Assembly: GCA_963514005.1 (NCBI GenBank)
Contig: OY740793.1
Location: forward strand, 26,474,001-26,538,000
Direction: 5' to 3'
DNA from: Raja brachyura
Lineage: Eukaryota
DNA length: 64,000 nucleotides
Positions 13,000-60,403 of the stretch are shown piece after piece; position 1 is the first letter of the stretch, and each line of letters begins with the position of its first letter. A model generated the notes under the pieces. The model saw nothing but the letters and a program-made list of their open reading frames with translations, made no database searches and was not told the origin of the DNA. Position numbers and translations under genes: made by a program.

Positions 13000-13162
13000 G
13001 TTACAGGGCGGCGGCGTGGCTGCGCAAAGAGACTCCGGGGAAATCTCAATTTCTTCACCGATCACCCCGACAGATATAACTGGCCGCTGTTTCTCCCCGT
13101 CCCCGAGATCGTCCGGGAGCAAAGGGGACGGCGAGAGCTTCCGTAACTAATAGGCCCTGAAG
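13000..13162 (+). other. Candidate non-coding first exon B (start approximate)
   Basis: Strong donor GAAG|GTAAGA at 13162/13163 followed by a G-rich intron start, typical of CpG-island first exons. Confidence 0.55.
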
Positions 13163-13392
13163 GTAAGACTGTACCGGGAGTGGGGTGGAGGGAGAGGAGG
13201 GGAGGGGAGGGCGGGTGGTGGTGGTGGCGGCGGGGGAGAGATCGTGGCTTGCTTTGTTTCTGCTACTGCTGATGGCTTGGGGATCGCAGGCTAGAGGGAG
13301 AGAGATTGGGAAATGCATGCAGCGCAGTTGGCCGGGAAGCGCAGCGCAAGGGTGCGAGTTGCGAGCGATCCCTGGGCAGGCAAGCCTCCGCT

Positions 13393-18035: not shown

Positions 18036-18158
18036 GAAAGATACACATGGAAACCGGCCCTGCTGCCCAACAAGTCCACAAGGACACAGATCACACTAGC
18101 TCTGTTATTCCACTTTCGCGTCCACTCCTGAGACACTAGGAGCAACCTACAGAGGCTG
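18036..18158 (-). mobile_element. 3' part of an HE1-like SINE split by the DIRS insertion
   Basis: GAAAGATACACATGGAAACCGGCCC..CACTAGGAGCAACCTACAGAGGCTG joins 22724 onward to rebuild a SINE like 43864-44137. Confidence 0.75.
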
Positions 18159-19499
18159 ATTTTACTTCGGAGTCACGTGAGTGACTACGTGAAGACCCCG
18201 CCAGCACGCATGCGCGACATATCGTCGAACGCATTGCGGAAGCGACAGTCGGGAGGAGCGCCGCTCCTCCAGCGTAAGTTTTTGAAAAAACTACCAAAGG
18301 TAAGGCTTACCATTTCTGGTGAGCATGGCGACTCGGTGTTTCTTTGTGTTCCAGAGAAAGCGCCATGGAGTCGAGAAAACACAGGAGAGCAGCGGCAAAA
18401 TTCACTGCTGTGGAAAGCAGCCAGCAGCGTGCCGTCTCTCCGGAGCTGCAGGTGCTACCAGCAGCCCCCGACTTCTCGCCGCAACAGACCGCAGGTTCGC
18501 CGCGGTCCGCCGGCAAAACCACCCGGAAGTCGGACAGGTCCGTTGCCTCGGCGGGACCTGAGGACACCCCGTTCGTGGTTAGCGACGGCGGTCGTCTTTC
18601 CCGCATGGAGCGGATGGTGGAGCAGTTGCTCCAGCGTGACCTGCTTATGCAGGGGCAGAATCACAGTGGGTCTCTTCGCAGACCCACGGCAGCATCCTAT
18701 CAAGGACTGCCAAATGTCTCGCCCTCTTCGCAGGGGAGCATTAGGGGTCAGAGCTGGGCTGACCCTGAAGAAGGGGCAATGGCTGAAGAGTACCTGTGTC
18801 AGGGGTGCCAGAAGAGTTGTAGGCATGGGTAATAAACATGCTGTACCAACCCAGAGAACTGCGTTTCTCTAAATGTGCCTGCAGTCAACAACCCATCTGG
18901 GGCAACATGAGCCCAACTACAAGGAGCCAGGAGGTGAAACTCCAGAAAATCCTTAAACTGCTGACTGCTGGTATTACAGCAGTGGCCAGAACAGCGATGG
19001 GGTTGAGATGCCTGAAGAGCTACTAGACGCTCCAGCACTCCTGTGCAATACTCAATTCAGATTTACAGCTACAGGAAGAGCATCATCAAGCCTGCACTCA
19101 ATCCAAAATTGCGGGATTATGCAGGACTAGCAGCACACAGCCGCCAACTTGCTGTTTGGGGACTACCTCCCGAAACAGGTAAAAGACCTGGATGAGGAGG
19201 CCAAGGCTATAGGCCTGATCAAGGTACCAAACACCACCAAAACCCATTATCAGCAGCGGCAGCACCCCTACACATCCACCAGACATCGTTATAATGAGAG
19301 ACCATCTGGTGGTGAAAGCTCGAAGGCCGGCCCACCTGCACAACGGTCTTTTTTAGACCATGGCCCAGCCCGGCCTTCTTGGAAAATGCGCCAACCCCAC
19401 AACGCAGCAACACAATACACGAAGAAACAAGGACAGAGACAACCTACACAACACCGGTAACCTTGGAGGTAGGTGGGTCTGGTTGTCTCAAAAAACATT

Positions 19500-21240
19500 G
19501 CTGCCTAGATTCATCAAGGGTTGGTGGACGATTGCACTTGTTTCATCATGTGTGGAACACTCTTACCTCTGATCCTTACATACTCGGAAGTATTCAGGGT
19601 ACTAATTGAATTTGTATACGAACTTCCCATCCCAGTTCAGCATACGCCCAGCCGAAAGTTCATATTTTCACAAAAGAGAGAACAGCAGGCCATGCTGAAC
19701 TGTTAAGACTAAACGAAAAAAGGGTAATTGAGAAGGCAATCCGAATCTCAAGAGTTCGTATCAAATATTTTTACAAAAACAAAAAAGATGGCGGATGCCG
19801 CAACATTATAGATTTGACTGAACTAAATACTTCCGTTCAGTATGCCTATTTCAAAATGGACACGTTTGTCACAGCCAAATAGCTAATTTCTGATAGGTAC
19901 TTCATGGCTTGCATCAATTTAAGGATGCATACTATTCAGTGCCAATACACAAGGATCATCGGAAATATCTAAAATTTGTCTGGATGGGACAGCCTTGGCA
20001 GTATAAAGCCTTACCCATTGGGTTGTCATCGGCACCCAGGCTGCTTACAGAATTGTTAAAACCAGCTTTAGCATAATTAAGGAAACATAACCATATTGCC
20101 ATGGTTTACCTTGACGATATTCTCATTGTAGGTGAGAATTTGGAGATGGCTACATTGGCAGTATCAGCCACAAAACATATTTTTAAAAGCTGGGATTAAC
20201 ATACATCCAGATAAATCAAAAAATGAAACCCTCCACTACCATGGATTATCTGGGGTTCACTATCGATTCTGTTCAAATGTCTATCACCTTGCCACCAAAC
20301 AAAGGGACAGACTTGACGGAAGCATGTAAAACCCTCACTGGCACCAGGGAACCATCCATTCTGCAAGTAGCCAGAGTGATTGAGAAACTAGTGGCTGCAT
20401 TCCAGCAGCACAATTTGGACCACTCCATCACCAAAACCTGCAAAGAGCAAAAATTCTAGCTCTTAAAAATCATGCGGGCCATTTTGATAGGCCTATGAAA
20501 CTACCAGAGAAGCTAAATTAGAATAATATTGGTGGATAGAAAATGCTCAGCATTGCTCTAACCCCATCACTATCATGAATCCGTCGGTTACATTACAGAC
20601 TGATGCCAGTGCTAAAGGTTGAGGAGCAGCTAATACCACCACTAGTTGTGGTGGCAGATGGAGTGCACAAGAATTAACCCTGTTGGGAGCACTAGGGATT
20701 AATTATCTATAAATGCTGGGAGCATTTCATGGACTCCGGGCCTACTGCTCAGATATGCACCAGTTGCATGTACGGTTACAAATTAATAATACCACAGTGG
20801 TGGCCTATATTAATCATATGGGTGGAATAAAATCGATATCATGTGATGAATTGGCTAATTACATCTGGCACTGGTGTCTGGATAGAGAGATTTCGATCTC
20901 AGCCACTTACCTTCCAGGTAAACTAAATACGGTGGCGGACACCAGGTCATGCAATTCAACGACAACATTGAATGGATGTTGGATCGGGACCCGGGGCCAG
21001 CAGCGATGGATGCTTCTCGCTGCATTGGGGGGATTGTTTTGCTATGCATTTCCCCCCTTCTGCCTCATCAGTCGGGTCTTACAAAAAATTAAACAAGACT
21101 CCGCAACGGGTATTTCGGGTTTCCCGACTGGCCTACCCAACCATGGTCCCCAGCAGTACTAAAGATGGCCGCAGAACACTGCTTTCGGATCCTCAAACGG
21201 CCGAGCCTGTTGGTACACCCTGTGACGGGTAAGTCATCCG
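19500..21240 (+). pseudogene. DIRS RT / RNase H / Dam-methyltransferase-like ORF, frameshifted
   Basis: DAYYSVPIH, YKALPIGLSSAPR, MVYLDDILIVG (20101), LQTDASAKG*GA (20593), INNTTVVAYINHMGG, YLPGKLNTVAD, YAFPPFCLISRVLQKI, PDWPTQPW. Confidence 0.9.
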
Positions 21241-21252
21241 TGCCATGATCGA

Positions 21253-22230
21253 ATGAACCTATTGATGCAGATTCTGAACAGGCCATTTCTGGACTACGGA
21301 CTCTCCGACAAGACGATCAATGTCATCACAGCGTCGTGCATGGAGTCCACCAGAGACAGAACTGACATATGTCAGAAGATGGGAGTGTTCTGCTTTAGAA
21401 CAAACACTTCATATGACTCGGCCATCATCACTGAAGTGCTGGAGTTCTGGCCACCCTTCATTCCATGAAGGTTTGAGCTACAGTGCCATTAATTTTGCGA
21501 GGAGTGCCCTATCTAATAACCTGGGCCGAGGGAGTGATCACCTGCCTATAGGATCACACCCACTGGTATCTAAACTGATGAGGGGTATTAATTCTATTCC
21601 CCCAGGGCCAGATACACCCATACATGGGACTTAGGCATAGAATTTACTATGCTTCGAGGATGGACACCAATATCGGGGCTCACTCTGGATAAACTAACAT
21701 ATAATATGGTTATGTTTATGGCACTTGTAACAGCACAACGGGTCCAGTCCTTACAAAGCTAAGTATGGATGCCATGTGTTAACCAATGGTAGATAACATT
21801 TCTGATACAGGGGTTACTCAAACTATATCGACCCAGTTCCTCTGGCCAAAAATTATCATTCTGGCCTACCCTGAAGATAGTCGGCTCTGCATTGTGACAT
21901 ATATTTTACGATATAGAAGGAACCAAGAATCTAGGGGCACGGAGAGGACTTTACCCATAAGCCACAAACGCCCTCATCATAAGGTCACAGTGCAAGCCAC
22001 TTCCAGTTGGTTAAGGGTGGTATTGGGTGCAGCGGGGATGGACACTAATGTTTTAAATCTCACTCCACCAGGGCTGCATCCACATCGGCGGCTAGGATGA
22101 TGGGAGTTCCTATGGACCACATCCTTGCTACAGCGGGTTGGAGCAGTGAACGAACTTTTCAGCACTTCTATTATAAACCCGTGGCCGCTCCTGAGATGTT
22201 TGCAGGGGAAAATGTTAAGTTCTGTTACAT
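21253..22230 (+). pseudogene. DIRS tyrosine recombinase ORF, frameshifted
   Basis: GLSYSAINFARSALS, GSHPLVSKLMRG, MALVTAQRVQSL, FKSHSTRAASTSAA..ILATAGWSSERTFQHFYYKPV (22052-22183), giving the R..HxxR..W..Y catalytic set. Confidence 0.9.
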
Positions 22231-26968: not shown

Positions 26969-27855
26969 CAGTAAGCCTTTGTTTTAATGGACTCCTTTCA
27001 CCCTGGCTCCCACCACCTACCCATGCCCTGCTTCCGACACCACGCCCGGCTCGCAAGGTGCCTCAATGAGCCCTTCTTGACTTGCAGTACGGTCCGTTGT
27101 TGCAGTTCACCTTGTAGCCCCTGGGGAGAGCGCTTTCTTCTGGACGCCGCTGCAGACTGTGACTCGGTCAATGTGGGCCCCCCCCCACACCTCTCACCAG
27201 CTGCCGCTTGTTTCTGTTGGCCGGTCGCTTAGTCCACTCTGCCTTCCCCCCCTCCCCTCATCGCTGCCTCTTCTTACTTCTCCTGTCACTGTCCGCTCAG
27301 CCTCTTCTCCCACCCCCCCCCCCCCCCCCCCTCCCAACCTTTCTGCTTTACCCCCGGAGTCACTGGCATACTCAACCTTGGAAATGTGGAGCAGACAAAG
27401 CAATGGCCAACAGGAAAAAGGGAAAGCTGGCGAGAGAGGAGGGAGCCCCACGGTTGGTGGAAGTAGGTGGTGGGAGCCAGGGTGAAAGGAGCCCAACGCG
27501 AGCCGCAACAACAGCCACCTTAGTCCGACTGTGCAGCAGCGGGAGAAGATGGGCACGCTGGCGCAGACCAGCGGCATCAGCACCTAGTAATGAGGTGAAA
27601 CAACACAAAGTGCCGGAGTAACCCAGCAGACTGAAGAAGGTTCCCGACGTCACATGCCCATGTTTTCCAGCGACGCTGCCTGACCTGCTGAGTTCCTCCA
27701 GCACTTTGTGTGCTTTTGTGTATTAACCAGCATCTGCAGTTCTTTGTTTCAACTATGTACAATGTTATGCCTTACTCGATTACAGCAGACAATCGGCAAT
27801 AATGGACACCACTCCCCCCCCCCCCCCCATGACCCGTTATAATGAGGATTTACTC
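26969..27855. mobile_element. Tigger/pogo-like non-autonomous DNA element with GC-rich interior and nested Penelope-derived unit (~27600-27750)
   Basis: TA|CAGTAAGCCTTTGTTTTAATGGAC ... GACCCGTTATAATGAGGATTTACTC|TA are degenerate TIRs with TA flanks. Confidence 0.5.
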
Positions 27856-29464: not shown

Positions 29465-29610
29465 GCAAATATTGGGCAGACATTCCGGAGAACATGAATC
29501 GGTGGTGTTTCGGGGAGGGTGGTGGGGGGGGGGGGTCACAACCTTAAACGTCATGTATCCATGTTCTCCAGAGATGCTGCCTGGCCTGCTGAGTTACTGT
29601 GTCCTATCCT
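29465..29610. mobile_element. Degraded fold-back Penelope-derived unit
   Basis: GGAGAACATGAATC.. and ..GTATCCATGTTCTCCAGAGATGCTGCC are inverted arms. Confidence 0.55.
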
Positions 29611-29631
29611 TTATCTGAATTTGTGTTAAAG

Positions 29632-29869
29632 AAGGAACTGCAGATGCTGGAAAATCGAGGGTACACAAAAGGCTGGAGAAACTCAGCGGGTGCAGCAGCA
29701 TCTAAGGAGCGAAGGAGATGGGCAACATTTCGGGCCAAAACCCTTCTTCAGACTCAAACCCTTTTCAGACTAGGGTCTGAAGAAGGGTTTCGGCCCGAAA
29801 CGTTGCCTATCTCCTTCGCTCCGTAGATGCTGCTGCACCCGCTGAGTTTCTCCAGCCTTTTGTGTACCC
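29632..29869. mobile_element. Young fold-back Penelope-derived unit with 95-bp inverted arms
   Basis: Arms 29659-29753 and 29775-29869 match as reverse complements with 4 mismatches; 21-nt spacer. Confidence 0.9.
29772..29810 (+). ncRNA. Candidate minimal type I hammerhead ribozyme
   Basis: AGGGU CUGAAGA A GGGU-UUCG-GCCC GAAA CG UU GCCUA: intact CUGANGA and GAAA boxes, stem II closed by UUCG, palindromic AACGUU stem III, short stem I. Confidence 0.65.
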
Positions 29870-31029
29870 CCTGTATATGCATTTATTTGTTTCCACATTG
29901 GACAGACAATAACTGAAACTAGGAAAGAAGAAGTTGGAAGTGGTGATCAAAGCCACAGAGAATTAATACTAAGGAGTAAATTTTGAAGGGGCTTTTGAAT
30001 GTAGAACTTGCTTCTCTACTAAATAGCCAGCAACGCTACACATTTTTCACAATTCATTTAACGGAGGCAATTTGAAACGGGTCGATTGACAACACCAAGT
30101 CTAAAAGATAAACAAACAAATTGCAGGTATAGTTTGTGTGCTAAGTATGTGTGTATGACTCTTCCACTGCCTTATTGTCTTGCAAATTTAAATCTGACAA
30201 TAGAAGACTCTGTTTGTTAGAATTTGTTTGCAGCTTGTTATATGAAAGCTTTTGAACTGCTGAAATAAACGAACACCGTTGTTATGGCTCAGGTTGGTCT
30301 TTTATACTTTAGCAGATGAAACATAGGGGTGGAAATTTGTTCACACATTTACAAAAAATGATTCTGTACTATTGAAAATTGGGTTAGAACTACTGGAGAG
30401 TAGATCAATGTTGGATGCCTGTGTGTCTGTTGAAAATTACTTTCCTCTTTAGAAACTATTTTCATTCCCTCTCGCACAGTTTCTACTAGACATCCAGAAA
30501 TATTGGGGCTGTATTGGTAGAGTAGGTGCTGGAGAATCCAGCACTAAGGAACATAGGATCCTTACTCACTAAGGATGAGCAGTCAGGTTTATAGAATTGA
30601 GGTAAGGAACATTTCCTTCATTCAGAGAATTGTAAATCGTTGTCATTTTGCACTCCAGAGGGCTGTGGTTGTTTAGTCATTCAGTATACTCTAGTTGTTA
30701 TATTCTAAACATTTAACAGTCTACATTTTGACAAATACATTGAATCATAGCATTAGTTTTCTTCATTTGCATTTGATGAATAACTGCCTGCATGTAACGT
30801 ACATGGAGATGTGATATTTGTAGCAATTTTGTACTGTCGCAAACCCCTGCAACTCACAATGAACCCCCAGTTCAGGATGTATCCCGATTTTGTTTAACAT
30901 ATAAAGTTACTTTTGCTTTCAGTCCAAGGCATTGATAATTCAAACATTCCTTGTATCTGCATCCAGAATATTTCTGTTTCAGTTTTAGTTTAAGACTGCT
31001 ATAGATTATGTAATATATGAGGTCCTGAG

Positions 31030-32591: not shown

Positions 32592-33386
32592 AGACATAAA
32601 AATGTGGAGTAACTCAGTGGGGCAGGCAACATCTCTGGAGAGAAGAAATTAGTGACATTTTGGGTCGGGACCCTTCTTCAGACTGAAAGTCACAGGAAAG
32701 AGAAATTAGAGATATAGACAATGATGTAGAGAGATATAGAACAATGAATGAAAGATATGCAAAAAAGTAACAATGATGAAGAAAATAGGCCATTGTTAGC
32801 TGTTTGCTGGGTGAAAATGAGAAGCTGGTGCAACTTGGGTGGGGGAGGGATGGAGAGCGAGGCAATGCCGGGTTACTTGAAGTTAGAGAAATCAATATTC
32901 ATAGCACTGGGCTGTAAGCTGCCCAAGCAAAATAACAGATGCTGCTCCTCCAATTTGTGTTTAACCTCACTGACAATGGAGGAAGTCTAGGACAGATAGG
33001 TTGGTGTGGGAATTGGAAGGAGAATTAGTGTTTAGCAACTGGGAGATAAGGTAGGTCTAGGCGGACTGAGCGAAGGTGTTCAGCGAAACGATCGCCCTGT
33101 CTACGTTTGGTCTCGCCGATGTATAAGAGTCCACATCTTGAACAACGGATACAGTAGATGAGGTTAGACAAGGTGCAAGTGAACCTCTGTCTAACCTGAA
33201 AGGACTGTTGGGGTTCCAGGATAGAGTCAAGGGAGGAGGTATAGGGACAGGTGTTGCACCTCCTGCGGTTGCAGAGGAACGTGCCTGCGGAGGGGGTGGT
33301 TTGGGTGGGAAGGGATGAGTTAACCAAAGAGTTGAGAAGGAACCGGTCTCCGTGAAAGGCAGAGAGGGGTGTAGATGGGAGATGGG
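32592..33386 (-). mobile_element. 5'-truncated Penelope-like element (GIY-YIG endonuclease, 3' UTR, hammerhead-bearing terminus) with 13-bp TSD
   Basis: FTCTLSNLIYCIRCSRCGLLYIGETKRR..RFAEHLRSV; C-terminus EQHLLFCLGSLQPSAMNIDFSNFK*; minus-strand CTGAAGAAGGGTCCCGACCCAAAATGTCAC near 32652-32681; TSD AAATATCGACAAT at 32579-32591 and 33387-33399. Confidence 0.9.
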
Positions 33387-33984
33387 AAATATCGACAATT
33401 CTTTTCTCCACTGAAGCTGCTTAACCCACTGAGTTCCTCCAGCAGTTTAATTTTGTTTCGTACTCCAACATACAGTCTATAGACTTTTGTATATCGAGTT
33501 AATACTAATCTAAAATCATGGATGGGTAAGGGATGAAATGATCATGTCTATGCAGCCAATAAAAAGTGACGACCATTTCTCCTGTCTCCAGCATTCCTCC
33601 TGCTCATGGTCTTCTACCCTCTCTGTAACTTTTTATTTACAACTGCCGGCGGAACATCAAGAGTCTTCTACTCCCTACTTCTCTACTCCCCTTACCCGTT
33701 CCAATCTCATCCCCTTTGCACGCACAATCCTCTGTTCACTCAGCAACAATTCCTAAGTTGTCATTTAACCCACTGACAGGGGAGGTGCCATTGTAAACTG
33801 GCAGGTTGACCTCTCCCGTGCTGAGGGCAGCGTTGGGTCTCAATCACCTCCTCATACCTACCGCTTGGCCATGACCCAACAGTCGAACAACAGGTCACCA
33901 CCTCCCAGACAGTTTCAAGAGTGTTTTATTGTCATATATCCCTAAACGGAACATTGAAATTCTTACTTGAAGTAGCACAACAGT

Positions 33985-51312: not shown

Positions 51313-53169
51313 ATAAATGAGATACAAATATGTGAGAATATTAAAGTAAGTTGCAATGTGCATGTTGTTATAAACATAATTATCAGGCTCAGATATTTTA
51401 TATAAGCATGTAAAGGCAACATTCATTTGTGGTCATTTTGCTTGTAAAATATACAAGATTTTATGGTGTACTTACTATAACATGGATTGAAAAATAGTCA
51501 CACTTTGTGTAGTTCAATGAAAGCATTCTCAACCTTGTGAATAACACATTCATAATATTTCCTTCAATTTCTGAGATGTAAATACTTTTTCACTTTCACA
51601 AAATTGTAATGTTCTTTAGCTAAGGAGAATATTATATTTAATTTGACCATGAGGATCTCATAATTAAGATTCATATAAGGTGAATAATTATTTTCACCTA
51701 TGGTTTGGATTAAGAATTACTCTTGCATTTATTTTTTTTAATTTAGAAGACGTATTTCACTATTTACCAGAAACATTCAATGTCCACAGCATATTTGCAA
51801 TTTTACCACATTTTTGGACAGCCCAGTAACTGTAGAATTTGCATTAGTAGTCAAGTTATAATGTTGCGTGTAATGTTGCCACTTATACCAAAATGTAGAT
51901 CAGAAATAATAAACTCCAAAGACTCACAGTGAATCCATGTTTAATCCTTTGAGAATATCACTACATGCCAATCTGAAGAACATCCATCTGCTTGAACTCT
52001 TGCTCCCTGTCACTGATTTGTATTCATTCCATTTATTTAAACATTATTTTATGTGCTATAGACCTTCCAAAGTCCACATAAGCATCTAATACTCTACTTT
52101 GAGCAGTCTTCACTGTCAGTTCATAAAATGCCATTGACTATTTTCCACCAAGGCTGTCGAACACATTTGTCTTTAGCAAATCCGTATGGGTTCAACTTGA
52201 TGAAACAAAATGAGAATGTATTTAACCAGTGTTAAACTGAGAGTCTATAACAGTCCTCTAACTCAAAATTGGTTTCATTGAAGTCAACGGAATTGAATTT
52301 TGGAAACAATTTCGAACATACAGTTTCTGTTAAATGGACATTCACTACAAGAAACTCTGATAGATCTATTGAGTTCTGTAGAAAATTGTGTTTTTGGTGT
52401 GAAGATGGATCTTGATTTTACTGTGATTGTACAGTGCTCCTACCAATGCTGTGTTTAAACAGATGCATCCAGAAACAGATGATGATTTAGACTTGTTCAT
52501 ACTACAGACAGTTTTGACAACTAGTAAGTTTGCAGACATGTATGATAACTGCTTATTAAAGCTATTCAGGGATGTGGTAATTACAATTCACTTTATGGAC
52601 TAATTGTTACTGCACATATCCTGTGAAGAAAGGAAGAATGGAAATGTATAGATTAAAAAGAGCAAAAAAAGGACATTCTATTTATCTTTTTCTCTGAAGG
52701 TCAGTCTGCTTTCCAAGGGTGATTAGTGCAAATAAATAAATTAGAATTCTGTAACCAGTTTCATTATTTTAATGAAACGTATGATGCGTGTATATCATTC
52801 AATTAACTTTTTGCAAATTTTAAGAAATGTAGGATATTTTAGATCATATTTCAATAATGTTGGATTGTTTTCTTTTGTGATGTGTGGCCATCTCTGGCAA
52901 GCCTGGTGTTTATTTGTCATCCCATATCTTCCTAAAGAAGGTAATAGTGAATGTCTGAAATTGCTGCAGTTCATGTATTGAAGTACACCCACTGTATTGA
53001 TAAGTAGGAATTTCCAGGATTTTGATACGGTAACAATGCACAATCGACTATAGATTTTTCTTTCTAAGTTGCAATTCTTGAAGGTCTATTGTCCTACATG
53101 GTAGATTGTGAGTTAAGTACTGCCTTAGAAGTCTCGGCAAATTGCTGCAGCAGACCTTGTATATGGTAT

Positions 53170-54170
53170 AGAAACAAGGAACTGCAGATGGTGGTTTACA
53201 AAAAAAAAAGAGACAAAGGTAGGCACACAATGCTGGAGTAACTCAGTGGGACAGGCAGTATCTTTGGAGAGAAGGAATGGGTTGTTCAGTGAGACAGGCA
53301 CCATCGTAGAAGATGGATGGGCGATGTTTCGGGTCGGGATGCCTTTGACTGAAAAAGGGTCTCAGCCCGAAATGTTACCCATTCCTTCTCTCCAGAGATA
53401 CTAGCTGTCCCGCTGAGTTACTCCAGCTTTTTGTGTCTCATCTTCTCTAGAGATGATGCCTGGCCCGCTGATTTACTCCAGCACTTTGTGTCTTTTTACA
53501 TATAGTGTGTTGGTGATGGACGATGTGAATGTTTAATATGATCATTAGGGGAGCAGTCAAGCCGGTTGCTATGTTGTGGATGATGACCATGGGACTGACC
53601 CTATTGGCTTTTCTTTATGTGTAAGAAAGAACTACAGATGCTGGTTTAAATCGAAGGTGGACACAAAATGCTGGAGTAACTCAGCGGTGCAGGCATCATC
53701 TCTGGAGAGAAGGAATGGGTGACGTTTCGGGTCGAGACAGAGTGAAGAAGGGTCTCGACCCGAAATGTCACCCAGTCCTTCTATCCGCTGAGTTACTCCA
53801 GCATTTTGTGTCCACCTTTGATTTAAACCAGCATCTGCAGTTCTTTCGTACACAAGTGGAGAGTTTCCTTCGCAATCTTTAATTTGTTTTACCGAGTCGA
53901 GGCAAATAATGCCTCGATAACAATATTGCTTGTAAAAGCTTTCCTTGAGCATGCCTGACGTGTTTCAGTTTTAATAAGAGCTGCCATCTGATTTCCACAG
54001 ATCGAATTGAAACTGAACGTTCGAACCTACTCGGTTCTCGCACGAAAGATAGACACAAAATGCTGAAGTAACTCAGCATCTCTGGAGAGAAGGAATGGGT
54101 GACGTTTGGGTCTCGACAGCATTTTGTGTCTATCTTCGATGTAAAGCGGCATCGGCAGTTCCTTCATACA
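53170..54170. mobile_element. Cluster of three fold-back Penelope-derived units (~53170-53495, ~53627-53848, ~54045-54165)
   Basis: Repeated AAGGAACTGCAGATGCTGG..GGAGTAACTCAGCGG..TGACGTTTCGGGTCGAGAC arms facing their reverse complements. Confidence 0.85.
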
Positions 54171-54249
54171 CACTCGGTTCTCACACTCCTGGCATCAAGC
54201 GAGGGATAACTGATGTGTGGGTGTTGTAGTTTATTTAGCTCTTTTGCTG

Positions 54250-54720
54250 GTTGACAGCTACTCAAATGGAGGGAATACGAACTACAAAACCCAGAATACC
54301 TTTCGCCCGCCGGCACTTGCAGACTGTCCTGCCAGTCCCTGCGCTGCGCTGTCCCTTCGCCCGCCGCCGCCGCCAACTTTTTTTCCGTGCACTGCATTGT
54401 GCGCGGAGGTAACGCGCCGGTCCTCGTGTCATTGCCTCCTTCTCCCTGCTCTGCCACGCCGGCGCCGCCGCCGGGGGAGAGTGAGAGCGTCCGGGCGGCT
54501 CAACGGCCGCGCAGGGCGGATGGCGGCGGCGGCTGGGATCGGTTGGCGAGCGGGCGCGAGCGGCGACTCGTGCGGCTCCCTCGCGTGCCAGTGGGCGGGG
54601 CCAGCGGCCGGGCATCGAGGGCCATTTAAACCGCTTGCGCTGGTGGCGGGCTGCAAGAGCGGAGCGCTCCGCTAAATAGTAGGGGAGGAGGAAAATAAAG
54701 AATCAATAGGTGTCAGCCCC
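54250..54720 (+). promoter_or_regulatory. CpG island promoter (putative proximal BCORL1 promoter) with ZNF143/THAP11-type motif
   Basis: Very high GC and CpG, (CCG)n, GC boxes; ACTACAAAACCCAGAATAC at 54281-54299 resembles the ACTACAnnTCCCAGnATGC promoter motif. Confidence 0.8.
54320..54408 (+). other. Candidate non-coding first exon C (start approximate)
   Basis: Donor GGAG|GTAACG at 54408/54409 just downstream of the ACTACA motif. Confidence 0.5.
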
Positions 54721-57010: not shown

Positions 57011-57406
57011 ATGTGGGGAAACCAATGATTCTGTGGGAAACTTACATAGTCCCAGAGAAAACGTGTACACTCAACCTAGACAGTGTTTGAGTTCTTGCAT
57101 TAATTGAATCAAAAACACCAAACAGTTTGGGTGAAATAACATCAATAAAACAAAAATTTTAAAGTAATAATTTAAAAACGTCTGTTAAAAAAAATGTATG
57201 CTATTAATTTTCATTGAAGAGAAGACCTTTCCCATCAAATTCTAGTTAACTTTGATGCTATTTATTAGAAAACATTGGATATAAAATAATGTATAATACT
57301 ATTCACGTGTTCACACTATTCAAACTTTAAGGGAAGTACTGTACTTTATTTTCATAAGCCTGCCCCCTGGTGGTTGAATAGAAAATCAAACATTCTTGTT
57401 TCATTG

Positions 57407-57634
57407 CAGAAACAAGGAACTGTAGATGCTGGTTTATATTTAAATAAAGACACAAAGTGGTGGAGTAACTCAACGGGTCAGGCAGCATCCTGGAGAACAT
57501 GGATAGATTATATTTTGTGTCGGGATCCTTAGTCTGAAGAAGGGTCCAAATCTGAAATGTCATCTATCCATATTCTCCAGTGATGCTGCCTGACCCGCTG
57601 AGTTACTCGAGCACTTTTTGTCTTTTTTTTTATG
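57407..57634. mobile_element. Fold-back Penelope-derived unit with probable TSD
   Basis: Inverted arms around CTGAAGAAGGGTCC (57534); CTTGTTTCATTG (57395-57406) versus CTTGATTCATTG (57635-57646). Confidence 0.8.
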
Positions 57635-59829
57635 CTTGATTCATTGTCCCAAGAGTGGAAATGCTCCTGTCCAATCCTGGAGGTAAGATCACAAATCTTA
57701 ATAATGGATTTCTATGATGGAAATGCATACCATGTGAATTTTTGTTAATACTCACCATTATGGGTTGCAAACACCTTACCTGATTTTGAAATCAAGAACT
57801 CCTGTGTGATAGCTGAAATACATGTGGTTAGAAATTAACTACTGGAAGCTATAAACTGTTAATGCATAATCTGACAATGTGAAAATCCCGTCTGAAAGCT
57901 ATGTTTTGAATGGATTAGCGAAAAAATGGCAAATTGTATGTTCAGTATTAAAATGTTTGACTATTTCCAGATTATAGGTAAAGCACAAGATAAAGGAAAA
58001 TAACTCATCAAATTGATTGAACCATTGTATAATTTACACCAACCAATGATGCAGAGATTATTTGTTGGAGGATACGTCTAAAATTGTTGTTTTTTTTACT
58101 GTCTTCGTGAAATGCATTCTGGTGCAAATTCAGGAGCCGTGATCTTTTTTGTGTTTCAGCCTTTTGCATTTGCCAGCTTTTGTTCTATGATTTACTTTTC
58201 AGAATGCTGCTATTTTTGCCTTTATTTTTAAACATTACTTTTGACAGAAAATATTTATATCTCAATTATATGGCATTAATTAAGCATAGCATTTGCTTAG
58301 TCCTGTTGCAGGGTTTTGATCCGAAATGTCGACAGTTCCGTCCCTCCTCTCCCATAGATGCTGCATGACCCACTGAGATCTTCCAACAGTTTTTTTTATT
58401 TTTCCCTCATTTTCGGCAATTGCAATCTCTTATGACTCTAGCATACGTTTTGGTTGACTCTAGTTTGAGAATGTGTTACTTTTCTATTAATATACTGGAA
58501 ATAATATCAAGAGAACAAATCTAATAAATTGTTATTGAAGCTAAAAGACTTCTACATAAAGGGAAACACATTAATCTATTAAAAGATCCAGAAAATGTGC
58601 AATGTATTAGTTAGCAAATAGGAAAGAGTGTTTTTATTTCGGCAAGTATACAGCAAATATAAAGGAAGCTTTTTGTACAGAATATTGATCTATGTTTTAC
58701 CTTTGAAGATATTGTTTGGTATACTTTGTGTATTCAATAATTCTTTCCTTTTGTTGTTATTTTTTGCATTTGTTTTTCCTTTATGAGAACTTAGTAACTT
58801 TTATTCAGACACCATTTTACTATTTTCAGCTATTTGAGTGCATGATCAACAGTGCAACAAATCACTTGTTAGCAAAATTACCAATGTGCTTTGATTGGCT
58901 CTTTATTCATGAATGATCTGTAATGCAACCAGCCCAATTCTTTCACAATTTTAGGGTACAATTATTGGCACTACTATTGTTTACAATTAGTTTCATTGCT
59001 ACTCAACAATCTTTTAATATTTTCTATTTATTGTAATAATTTTAGATGCAGAACATTGGTAGAATTTTATAGTGAGTACTTACATATGTCATCGTGCATT
59101 TATGCAGACAATTTTCTTTGATTGCTCGCACCGTCGTCAATGAAAATGTTTAGGATATGAGTTGTACAGATATCTTGACATTCCGTTTTGGTGGAATATT
59201 GAGGGATGAGTAAAACCAGCAGCCAATACTCTGATTTGTATAGCCATGAAACCCTAGATTAATTTATCGCCCACTGCTTTTTCAAATGTTTTGCATAGAA
59301 AGTGGTTTAGTGCTTTATATCTTAATTGGGTGTTACCTACGTTAGGAATATGTTGCTGAATATTTTCTTGGGCTGGCAGTGTAGTTTGCCAACCAAAATG
59401 TTACAGCCTTACATCGGCCTTGCTGAAACAACGAGGTCAATGTTTCCACAGAAAGATGTAATTGTATTGGAGAAGGTGCAGTATTTATTTACTAAAATAA
59501 TTCCTACATGAGGCAGCTGTCCTACATGGAAAAATTGAGCATATTTGTTTACTGGAATTTCTATGAATGAAAGGTAATTCCTATTGAGAAAAAGTTATGA
59601 GAAGTAATGGCAGGGTAGGTGCTGAAGGGCTATTTCCTCAGGTCTTTGCCCATTCTGACAGTCACAGGATCACTACATTTTTGCAAGAGCGAATACTTTG
59701 GATAATTGATCTATAAACATAAGTGACATTATCTTCTTCAGGATGCACATTGTTCATTGGAAATCCCTTAGTCTGCAATCAGAAACTAGATATAATGGCT
59801 TGCAGAGATTCTTTCACTTAGAGGGAGAC

Positions 59830-60269: not shown

Positions 60270-60317
60270 GTTGGAGCAGTGAAGGAGTGGAACTATTCTA
60301 ATTGGTCTTCACCTGTC
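60270..60317 (+). other. BCORL1: 5' UTR portion of the first coding exon
   Basis: Acceptor ATTTTATCAATCAG|G at 60269/60270; 48 nt upstream of the ATG. Confidence 0.75.
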
Positions 60318-60403
60318 ATGCTTGCCACAGCCTCGTTGTACAACGGCATTCACGATTGGACACAAACTGACTCTATACGGATGTGTGGCATTAAGGAAGA
60401 TAG
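60318..60403 (+). CDS. BCORL1: First coding exon of BCL6 corepressor-like 1 (BCOR family); gene continues beyond the window
   Basis: [29 protein letters not shown](split) aligns, from memory, with human BCORL1 [29 protein letters not shown] and less well with BCOR [29 protein letters not shown]. It has 86 coding nt ending in phase 2 at the donor AG|GTGAGT, as I recall for BCOR/BCORL1. Confidence 0.88.

Follow-up and report, generated by a model that had tools for sequence, protein, structure and literature searches.

A hammerhead-bearing fold-back in BCORL1 intron 1 of the skate Raja brachyura as a head-to-head pair of Penelope-like pseudo-LTRs

Introduction

In the accounts available to us, the canonical EN+ Penelope-like retroelement (PLE) unit comprises a pseudo-LTR (pLTR), an adjoining inverted and 5′-truncated copy, and a tail of 30–40 nt on one side only; an inverted, 5′-truncated copy with a one-sided tail is thus the norm for PLEs (PMC8557442; PMC3846280; PMC2377424). 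The integration cycle of these elements is called undefined in reviews (PMC8557442).

Minimal hammerhead ribozymes (min-HHRs) are described in the pLTRs of metazoan PLEs, including pairs on opposite strands 100–700 bp apart, and a single min-HHR from S. mansoni gave no cleavage (PMC4209133); cartilaginous fish are not named in the sections of that paper used here. For Poseidon_Ac, a PLE of the green anole, two reverse transcription start sites are reported to bracket the tail, both strands being cut and extended, while its hammerhead cleaved only with the element protein and cleavage was not needed for insertion (PMC11167929). The main text of that study makes no mention of inverted or head-to-head insertions. 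Introns are reported in a preprint to exclude tandem retrozymes (10.64898/2026.07.22.740005); hammerhead activity can thus matter to hosts where the copies are in tandem.

Here we consider a short fold-back with a hammerhead core in an intron of a skate. It is very probably a head-to-head pair of 5′ pLTRs of a Neptune-type PLE, one of them tailed, which likely entered BCORL1 intron 1 in a single event and is now likely decaying without function; the steps by which it formed are inferred from its relatives in the same genome.

Results

The fold-back and its host intron

The window, by which we mean the whole 64,000-nt stretch analysed (Raja brachyura, GCA_963514005.1, contig OY740793.1, positions 26,474,001 to 26,538,000 of the forward strand), contains the following features.

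13131–13162, + strand: host first (non-coding) exon, 3′ part; donor at 13163
29608–29622, + strand: probable left target-site duplication (TSD); 12 of 15 positions match 29870–29884
29623–29658, − strand: 36-nt PLE tail, absent from the right arm; full-length parents have it between the pLTR and the ORF
29659–29753, − strand: tailed pLTR arm; hammerhead core at 29751–29724 with two CpG-decay changes
29754–29774, no strand: copy-specific junction filler (loop); loops differ in every sister copy
29775–29869, + strand: tailless inverted pLTR arm; inverted repeat comparison
29777–29804, + strand: minimal type I hammerhead core, recognised by the min-HHR features of PMC4209133
29870–29884, + strand: probable right TSD; sequence match, and a median TSD of 15 nt in sister copies
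32594–33420, − strand: older 5′-truncated PLE, a GIY-YIG remnant followed by a related pLTR; sequence matches
60270–60403, + strand: BCORL1 exon 2, first ATG at 60318; relatives' contigs

A first-pass annotation had described a near-perfect 95-bp fold-back with a 21-nt loop and four differences, inside a putative BCORL1 intron. We recovered the same inverted repeat (29659–29753 and 29775–29869, 95 nt each, loop of 21 nt), with the four mismatched pairs at 29705/29823, 29720/29808, 29727/29801 and 29737/29791 and a predicted folding energy of −191 kcal/mol. The full insertion is larger than first described, however, and spans 29623–29869. Within the junction filler, 29756–29770 closely repeats the antisense head, and a TAGG could, in the predicted fold, lengthen helix I of the hammerhead. 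A decayed older pLTR at 29533–29606 ends right at the insertion site, and sister copies L023, L038 and L045 also adjoin older copies, which hints at a preference for the element's own ends. The same intron holds further, older fold-backs of related pLTR subfamilies at 27598–27716, 53224–53850 and 57450–57618.

The assignment to BCORL1 holds because exon joins, continuation of the gene and PUFD scores agree, and on this evidence from sequence the hairpin sits in the 47-kb 5′-UTR intron 1 (13163–60269, + strand). Four runs from relatives (X1, X3, X5 and X6, presumed to be RNA, with X6 flagged as probably DNA) bear on the exon joins: in contigs of three of them (X3, X5, X6) a + strand exon ending at 13162 is joined to the exon 60270–60403, while in X1 exon 2 (60270) is joined to a different first exon, one not found within the 64-kb window. 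The gene continues on the + strand with two further exons (L188, L189) and then with ankyrin and PUFD exons. BCORL1 is the best match of this PUFD (75 vs 72 bits), and the paralogue on contig C12 is BCOR (99.8 vs 69.2 bits). An exon of 905 aa gave no Pfam match and an atlas lead to the BCOR family at 0.90, with low recognition. Exon 3 appears skippable, as loose contig ends match both L188 and L189.

Each arm corresponds to the 5′ pLTR of a Neptune-type PLE

Nine long copies of the parent element were picked for their frames of 1203–1221 aa. The arm with its tail (131 nt, ~92% identical) stands directly upstream of these frames in eight of the nine, being whole in six and 5′-cut in two, with the last bases only in the remaining one. 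Since arm and tail directly precede the ORF in this way, each hairpin arm is identified by sequence as the 5′ pLTR, or 5′ UTR, of a Neptune-type PLE. The ORF is a single frame with RVT_1 followed by a C-terminal GIY-YIG domain (E 4e-5 and 6e-4, both under the Pfam cut-offs), and the pLTR recurs after it, giving partial pLTR-ORF-pLTR tandems in L215, L217, L219, L222 and L223; copy L221 begins exactly at GTCTGA. A C-x4-C-x2-C linker separates RT from EN in the arms of locus L119, and a Zn-finger-like motif at this position is common to Neptune and Nematis, as PMC8557442 describes them.

Locus L119 (L119:136-3975; G000:C1:1952135-1955974) is itself a 3.85-kb head-to-head palindrome with 98.6% identity between its arms, each of which carries an open RT-GIY-YIG frame of ~550 codons: the hairpin product at large scale. 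The many near-identical copies with intact 1203–1221-aa frames (L215–L223) give the family the look of one recently or still active.

The hairpin is therefore the known PLE product of an inverted copy plus a tail. It shares with canonical EN+ PLEs the head-to-head inverted pLTR, a tail (36 nt) on one arm, a TSD and a palindrome at the junction, and its parent has the RT with C-terminal GIY-YIG in partial tandems. It differs in that the arms consist of pLTR only, without any ORF, that their 5′ ends cluster at one point, and that this minimal form is present in ~5,000 copies or more. The TSDs, at a median of 15 nt, are also longer than the 8–10 bp cited for rotifer PLEs.

A genome-wide family of fold-backs

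One 32-mer of the arm is matched exactly at 68,957 sites in the genome (34,603 + 34,354), and a 35-mer specific to the hairpin's subfamily has 2,841. Tight head-to-head junctions, with a spacer of up to 14 nt, number 4,952, a count that stands in for that of full-length fold-backs. When the genome was searched with the hairpin region, all 40 scored candidates proved to be the same kind of fold-back, and all 40 reach at least 19 nt to the left of 29659, where the hairpin had first been taken to start; the 25 that were inspected have copy-specific loops and, in most cases, clear flanking duplications.

The census samples were all drawn from the first 20 Mb of contig C1. Among the first 100 matches listed, 91 arms were recovered: 38 were solo, 26 belonged to short fold-backs, and 27 were attached to an element body, each following the 3′ end of a longer element. 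For arms not attached to a body, the 5′ start falls at positions 1–3 in 42 of 64, and in only two does it lie no more than 1 nt from the product of ribozyme cleavage; hammerhead cleavage was rejected as the origin of the 5′ ends on this ground. Two classes of solo arm are seen, both with TSDs: one includes the tail and the other stops just short of it. Of 49 junction loci (five being segmental duplicates), 41 have one tail and one has two, with none detected by score in seven older loci. The same head-to-head geometry is found with arms of 234 bp (L128), 548 bp (L130) and ~1,900 bp (L119).

For comparisons between arms we kept 25 young one-tailed copies, dropping 19 of 44 as old, rearranged or two-tailed. 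The TSD has a median length of 15 nt in 25 copies, and TSD divergence in the 25 young copies is 1.7%, a value taken from the best local match and so biased low. Arms diverge by 2.0% within a copy and by 3.1% between copies, and none of 10,000 permutations gave a within-copy value as low; this points to a single source for both arms. Two non-CpG variants are each common to both arms, in three of three cases. Mismatches between arms are 4.5-fold more frequent at CpG (5.4%) than elsewhere (1.2%), and the GAAA box is changed in 7 of 52 young arms, as for unselected copies.

The commonest junction is CAG-N-CTG, where, read on the tail-first strand with duplicated loci removed, independent cases give N as A 12 times and as T 10 times. 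In asymmetric pairs the tailless arm is the longer in seven of nine (p=0.09, not significant). With 5 duplicates and the 30 loci that had been picked for their similarity left out, an extra 5′ G occurs in 22 of 40 cases against ~32% expected (p 0.016 and 0.041), which we regard as a post hoc hint only. Across L135–L183 the junction fillers frequently consist of short stretches repeated from the arm head (e.g. L146, L148, L151, L152), as is typical of templated end-joining.

The hammerhead core and its sequestration

The right arm does carry the intact core first noted in it: the letters CUGAAGA-A-GGGU(UUCG)GCCC-GAAA-CGUU at 29777–29804 supply the CUGANGA box, the extra base after position 9, the G10.1–C11.1 pair, GAAA, the palindromic 15.2–16.2 positions of the ACGU that replaces helix III, and an NUH triplet, all features of the min-HHRs described in PMC4209133, as is the presence of opposite-strand pairs nearby. 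The predicted scissile bond is 29804/29805 (GUU), following position 30 of the element. In contrast to those min-HHRs, helix II of the hairpin has 4 bp rather than 7–8, helix I of the parents ~2 bp rather than 4–5, and the cleavage triplet of this subfamily is GUU. Junction letters extend helix I of the right arm to 4 bp, including two G.U pairs. The stem II variant is a mark of the subfamily with the 2,841 matches and a one-sided change of U-A to U.G. On the minus strand the left arm has the same core with two CG-to-TG changes; AUGU there replaces the palindromic ACGU, and because this CpG change breaks the palindrome needed for dimer pairing, the left-arm core is damaged. Rfam returned no match in the window at the gathering threshold, and at E up to 10 only under-threshold generic miRNA hairpin models and no hammerhead model.

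As the first-pass annotation proposed, computation bears out that a transcript of either strand contains one core together with its own antisense. The hammerhead is the element's own minimal motif, here lacking a tandem partner and predicted to be buried in the duplex: the pairing probability of stem II, 0.34 in the bare core, falls to 0.003 in the arm alone and to 0.000 in the full hairpin. Transcription of the BCORL1 strand yields the antisense arm ahead of the core, which is predicted to fold into the duplex in each of the lengthening transcripts. The right-arm motif has no helix III, and a second direct copy in cis is absent, as the arms are inverted and the other sense arms of intron 1 have broken cores.

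Being short, non-coding, related to a pLTR and hammerhead-bearing, the hairpin resembles the non-LTR retrozymes of the preprint above (10.64898/2026.07.22.740005), which form direct tandem arrays capable of dimers. Its inverted pair allows no dimer, and it was rejected as a non-LTR retrozyme since it has no direct tandem units.

Discussion

The structure in BCORL1 intron 1 is of a known kind and ordinary at its site. It is the family as a whole, through its junctions, that has wider reach, since it bears on the origin of PLE inversions. The copies suggest that fold-backs form by priming from two target strands, synthesis to the 5′ end of the RNA and joining at a palindrome. The element protein would nick the two target strands ~15 nt apart, and each nicked 3′ end would prime cDNA synthesis at an internal site of the RNA, the end of the tail for one and, 36 nt upstream, the end of the pLTR for the other. 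Both cDNAs would run to the RNA 5′ end at C-A-G-T-C-T, just 95–131 nt away; their 3′ ends would then either anneal through the CAG-T-CTG palindrome or be end-joined with templated filler, which the 21-nt loop of the window copy may be. For the minimal fold-backs a specific form of this scheme is conceivable, with somewhat less than an even chance: a protein dimer on one RNA makes one cDNA per start site from the two nicked strands, run-off occurs at the capped 5′ end in a 'strong-stop'-like manner, and the ends anneal via the terminal palindrome of the pLTR.

Several observations fit two-strand priming. Arm 5′ ends at positions 1–3 are expected if cDNA runs off an RNA that starts there, the ratio of 12 A to 10 T at the junction centre agrees with the pairing of two cDNA ends across an A.A mismatch, and tailless solo arms with their own TSDs imply that the inner site can prime on target DNA by itself. 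As in Poseidon_Ac, there would be two start sites around the tail, with cutting and extension of both strands, the hammerhead would not be needed for insertion, and it does not mark copy ends; the two elements differ in that ours has a Neptune-type linker and an ORF that starts downstream of the tail and not inside the hammerhead (PMC11167929). The putative transcript start at CAG/TCTGA is favoured because a full-length copy starts there and no common upstream exon is seen, and these same two facts argue against the alternative that we considered, a splice acceptor at this site. One observation counts against our reading of the window copy: its TSD has 3 mismatches in 15 against 4 in 95 for the arms, more than expected.

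In the alternative proposed in PMC3846280, one cDNA, or an antisense template, primes itself (snap-back) and so yields the inverted arm, with inversion or conversion in the palindrome to follow. This published route to the same PLE product accounts for the CAG-T-CTG junction palindrome and for the variants common to both arms. However, snap-back from a tail-primed cDNA predicts A at the junction centre, where both A and T are seen, and a tailed arm at least as long as its tailless partner, contrary to seven of the nine asymmetric pairs; nor does it call for an inner site that primes on target DNA alone, as the tailless solos with their own TSDs indicate. We consider it rather unlikely. Two other sources could account for the shared arm variants and the A/T centre: strand-switching or conversion inside the palindrome at a later time, or a single active master that supplied two RNAs. 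If two-strand priming is true, it would jointly explain the one-sided tail, the head-to-head inversion and the abundance of solo pLTRs, and would replace the proposal of antisense self-priming. Our literature search, whose coverage leaves most subscription journals outside, returned no paper on this PLE family in skates or on two-strand priming behind PLE inversions.

Does the hairpin do anything for BCORL1? Its 95-bp duplex has two A.C mismatches on the + strand (29727.29801 and 29737.29791), the type of mismatch preferred by ADAR, and the hairpin is a plausible candidate substrate for ADAR or Dicer. Co-option of the hairpin for editing or small-RNA production, with an effect on BCORL1, is very unlikely: there is no sign of selection, the left arm shows CpG-type decay, and such duplexes would occur in thousands of introns.

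A further idea, put forward in the first-pass annotation, was that the fold-back is retained because it silences a harmful intronic ribozyme and so protects the BCORL1 pre-mRNA. The sequestration part stands as a prediction from folding, with stem II at 0.000, and the depletion of tandem retrozymes from introns in the preprint and the 4-bp helix I of the right arm, against 2 bp in the parent, would lend the idea some colour. The protection part is not supported. There is little to sequester, given the lack of helix III, the lack of an intact direct partner in intron 1, and published monomers that are inactive or dependent on protein, as far as PMC4209133 and PMC11167929 report; even in the isolated arm stem II reaches a probability of only 0.003. 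Nor are unpaired sense arms in short supply: a scan of BCORL1 over intron 1 and the next 110 kb gave, in a small sample, 10 unpaired sense arms (one with an intact core, at L190:5650) against 6 antisense (one intact); one of the 10, at 27621, actually belongs to a short old fold-back. An intact unpaired sense copy thus sits in the same gene, thousands of like structures exist in the genome, and the copies decay at CpGs. We judge protection slightly less credible still than co-option, and the hairpin is likely ordinary genomic debris and not a host safety device.

Least credible of all is a MITE or fold-back DNA transposon moving as a unit with the arms as its terminal inverted repeats, since the short near-perfect inverted repeat, high copy number and TSD that recall one are set against a separate loop in each copy with no fixed internal sequence across dispersed copies, asymmetric ends due to the one-sided tail, TSDs of varying length, arms of up to 1.9 kb, and an arm that is the 5′ end of an RT-encoding element.

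A fold-back that is a by-product of PLE integration, recurring thousands of times, makes no special locus of BCORL1 intron 1. Its family, in turn, is a large natural record of PLE integration, and the statistics of its junctions offer cheap tests of self-priming against two-strand priming. Many introns of this genome hold perfect duplexes of ~95 bp, possibly a background load on ADAR and dsRNA sensing.

The window also contains other mobile-element remnants, at 18100–22100, 41600–43400 and 49990–51030: a probable DIRS/tyrosine-recombinase retroelement (identified by eye), a LINE RT and a Tc1-like transposase. A GC-rich stretch at 54338–54671 has zero cover in the four runs, which is uninformative. 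The pLTR-family arms at 53002–54337 and 57344–57677 draw very deep cover from the relatives' putative RNA runs, so the family is widely present in the data sets of these relatives.
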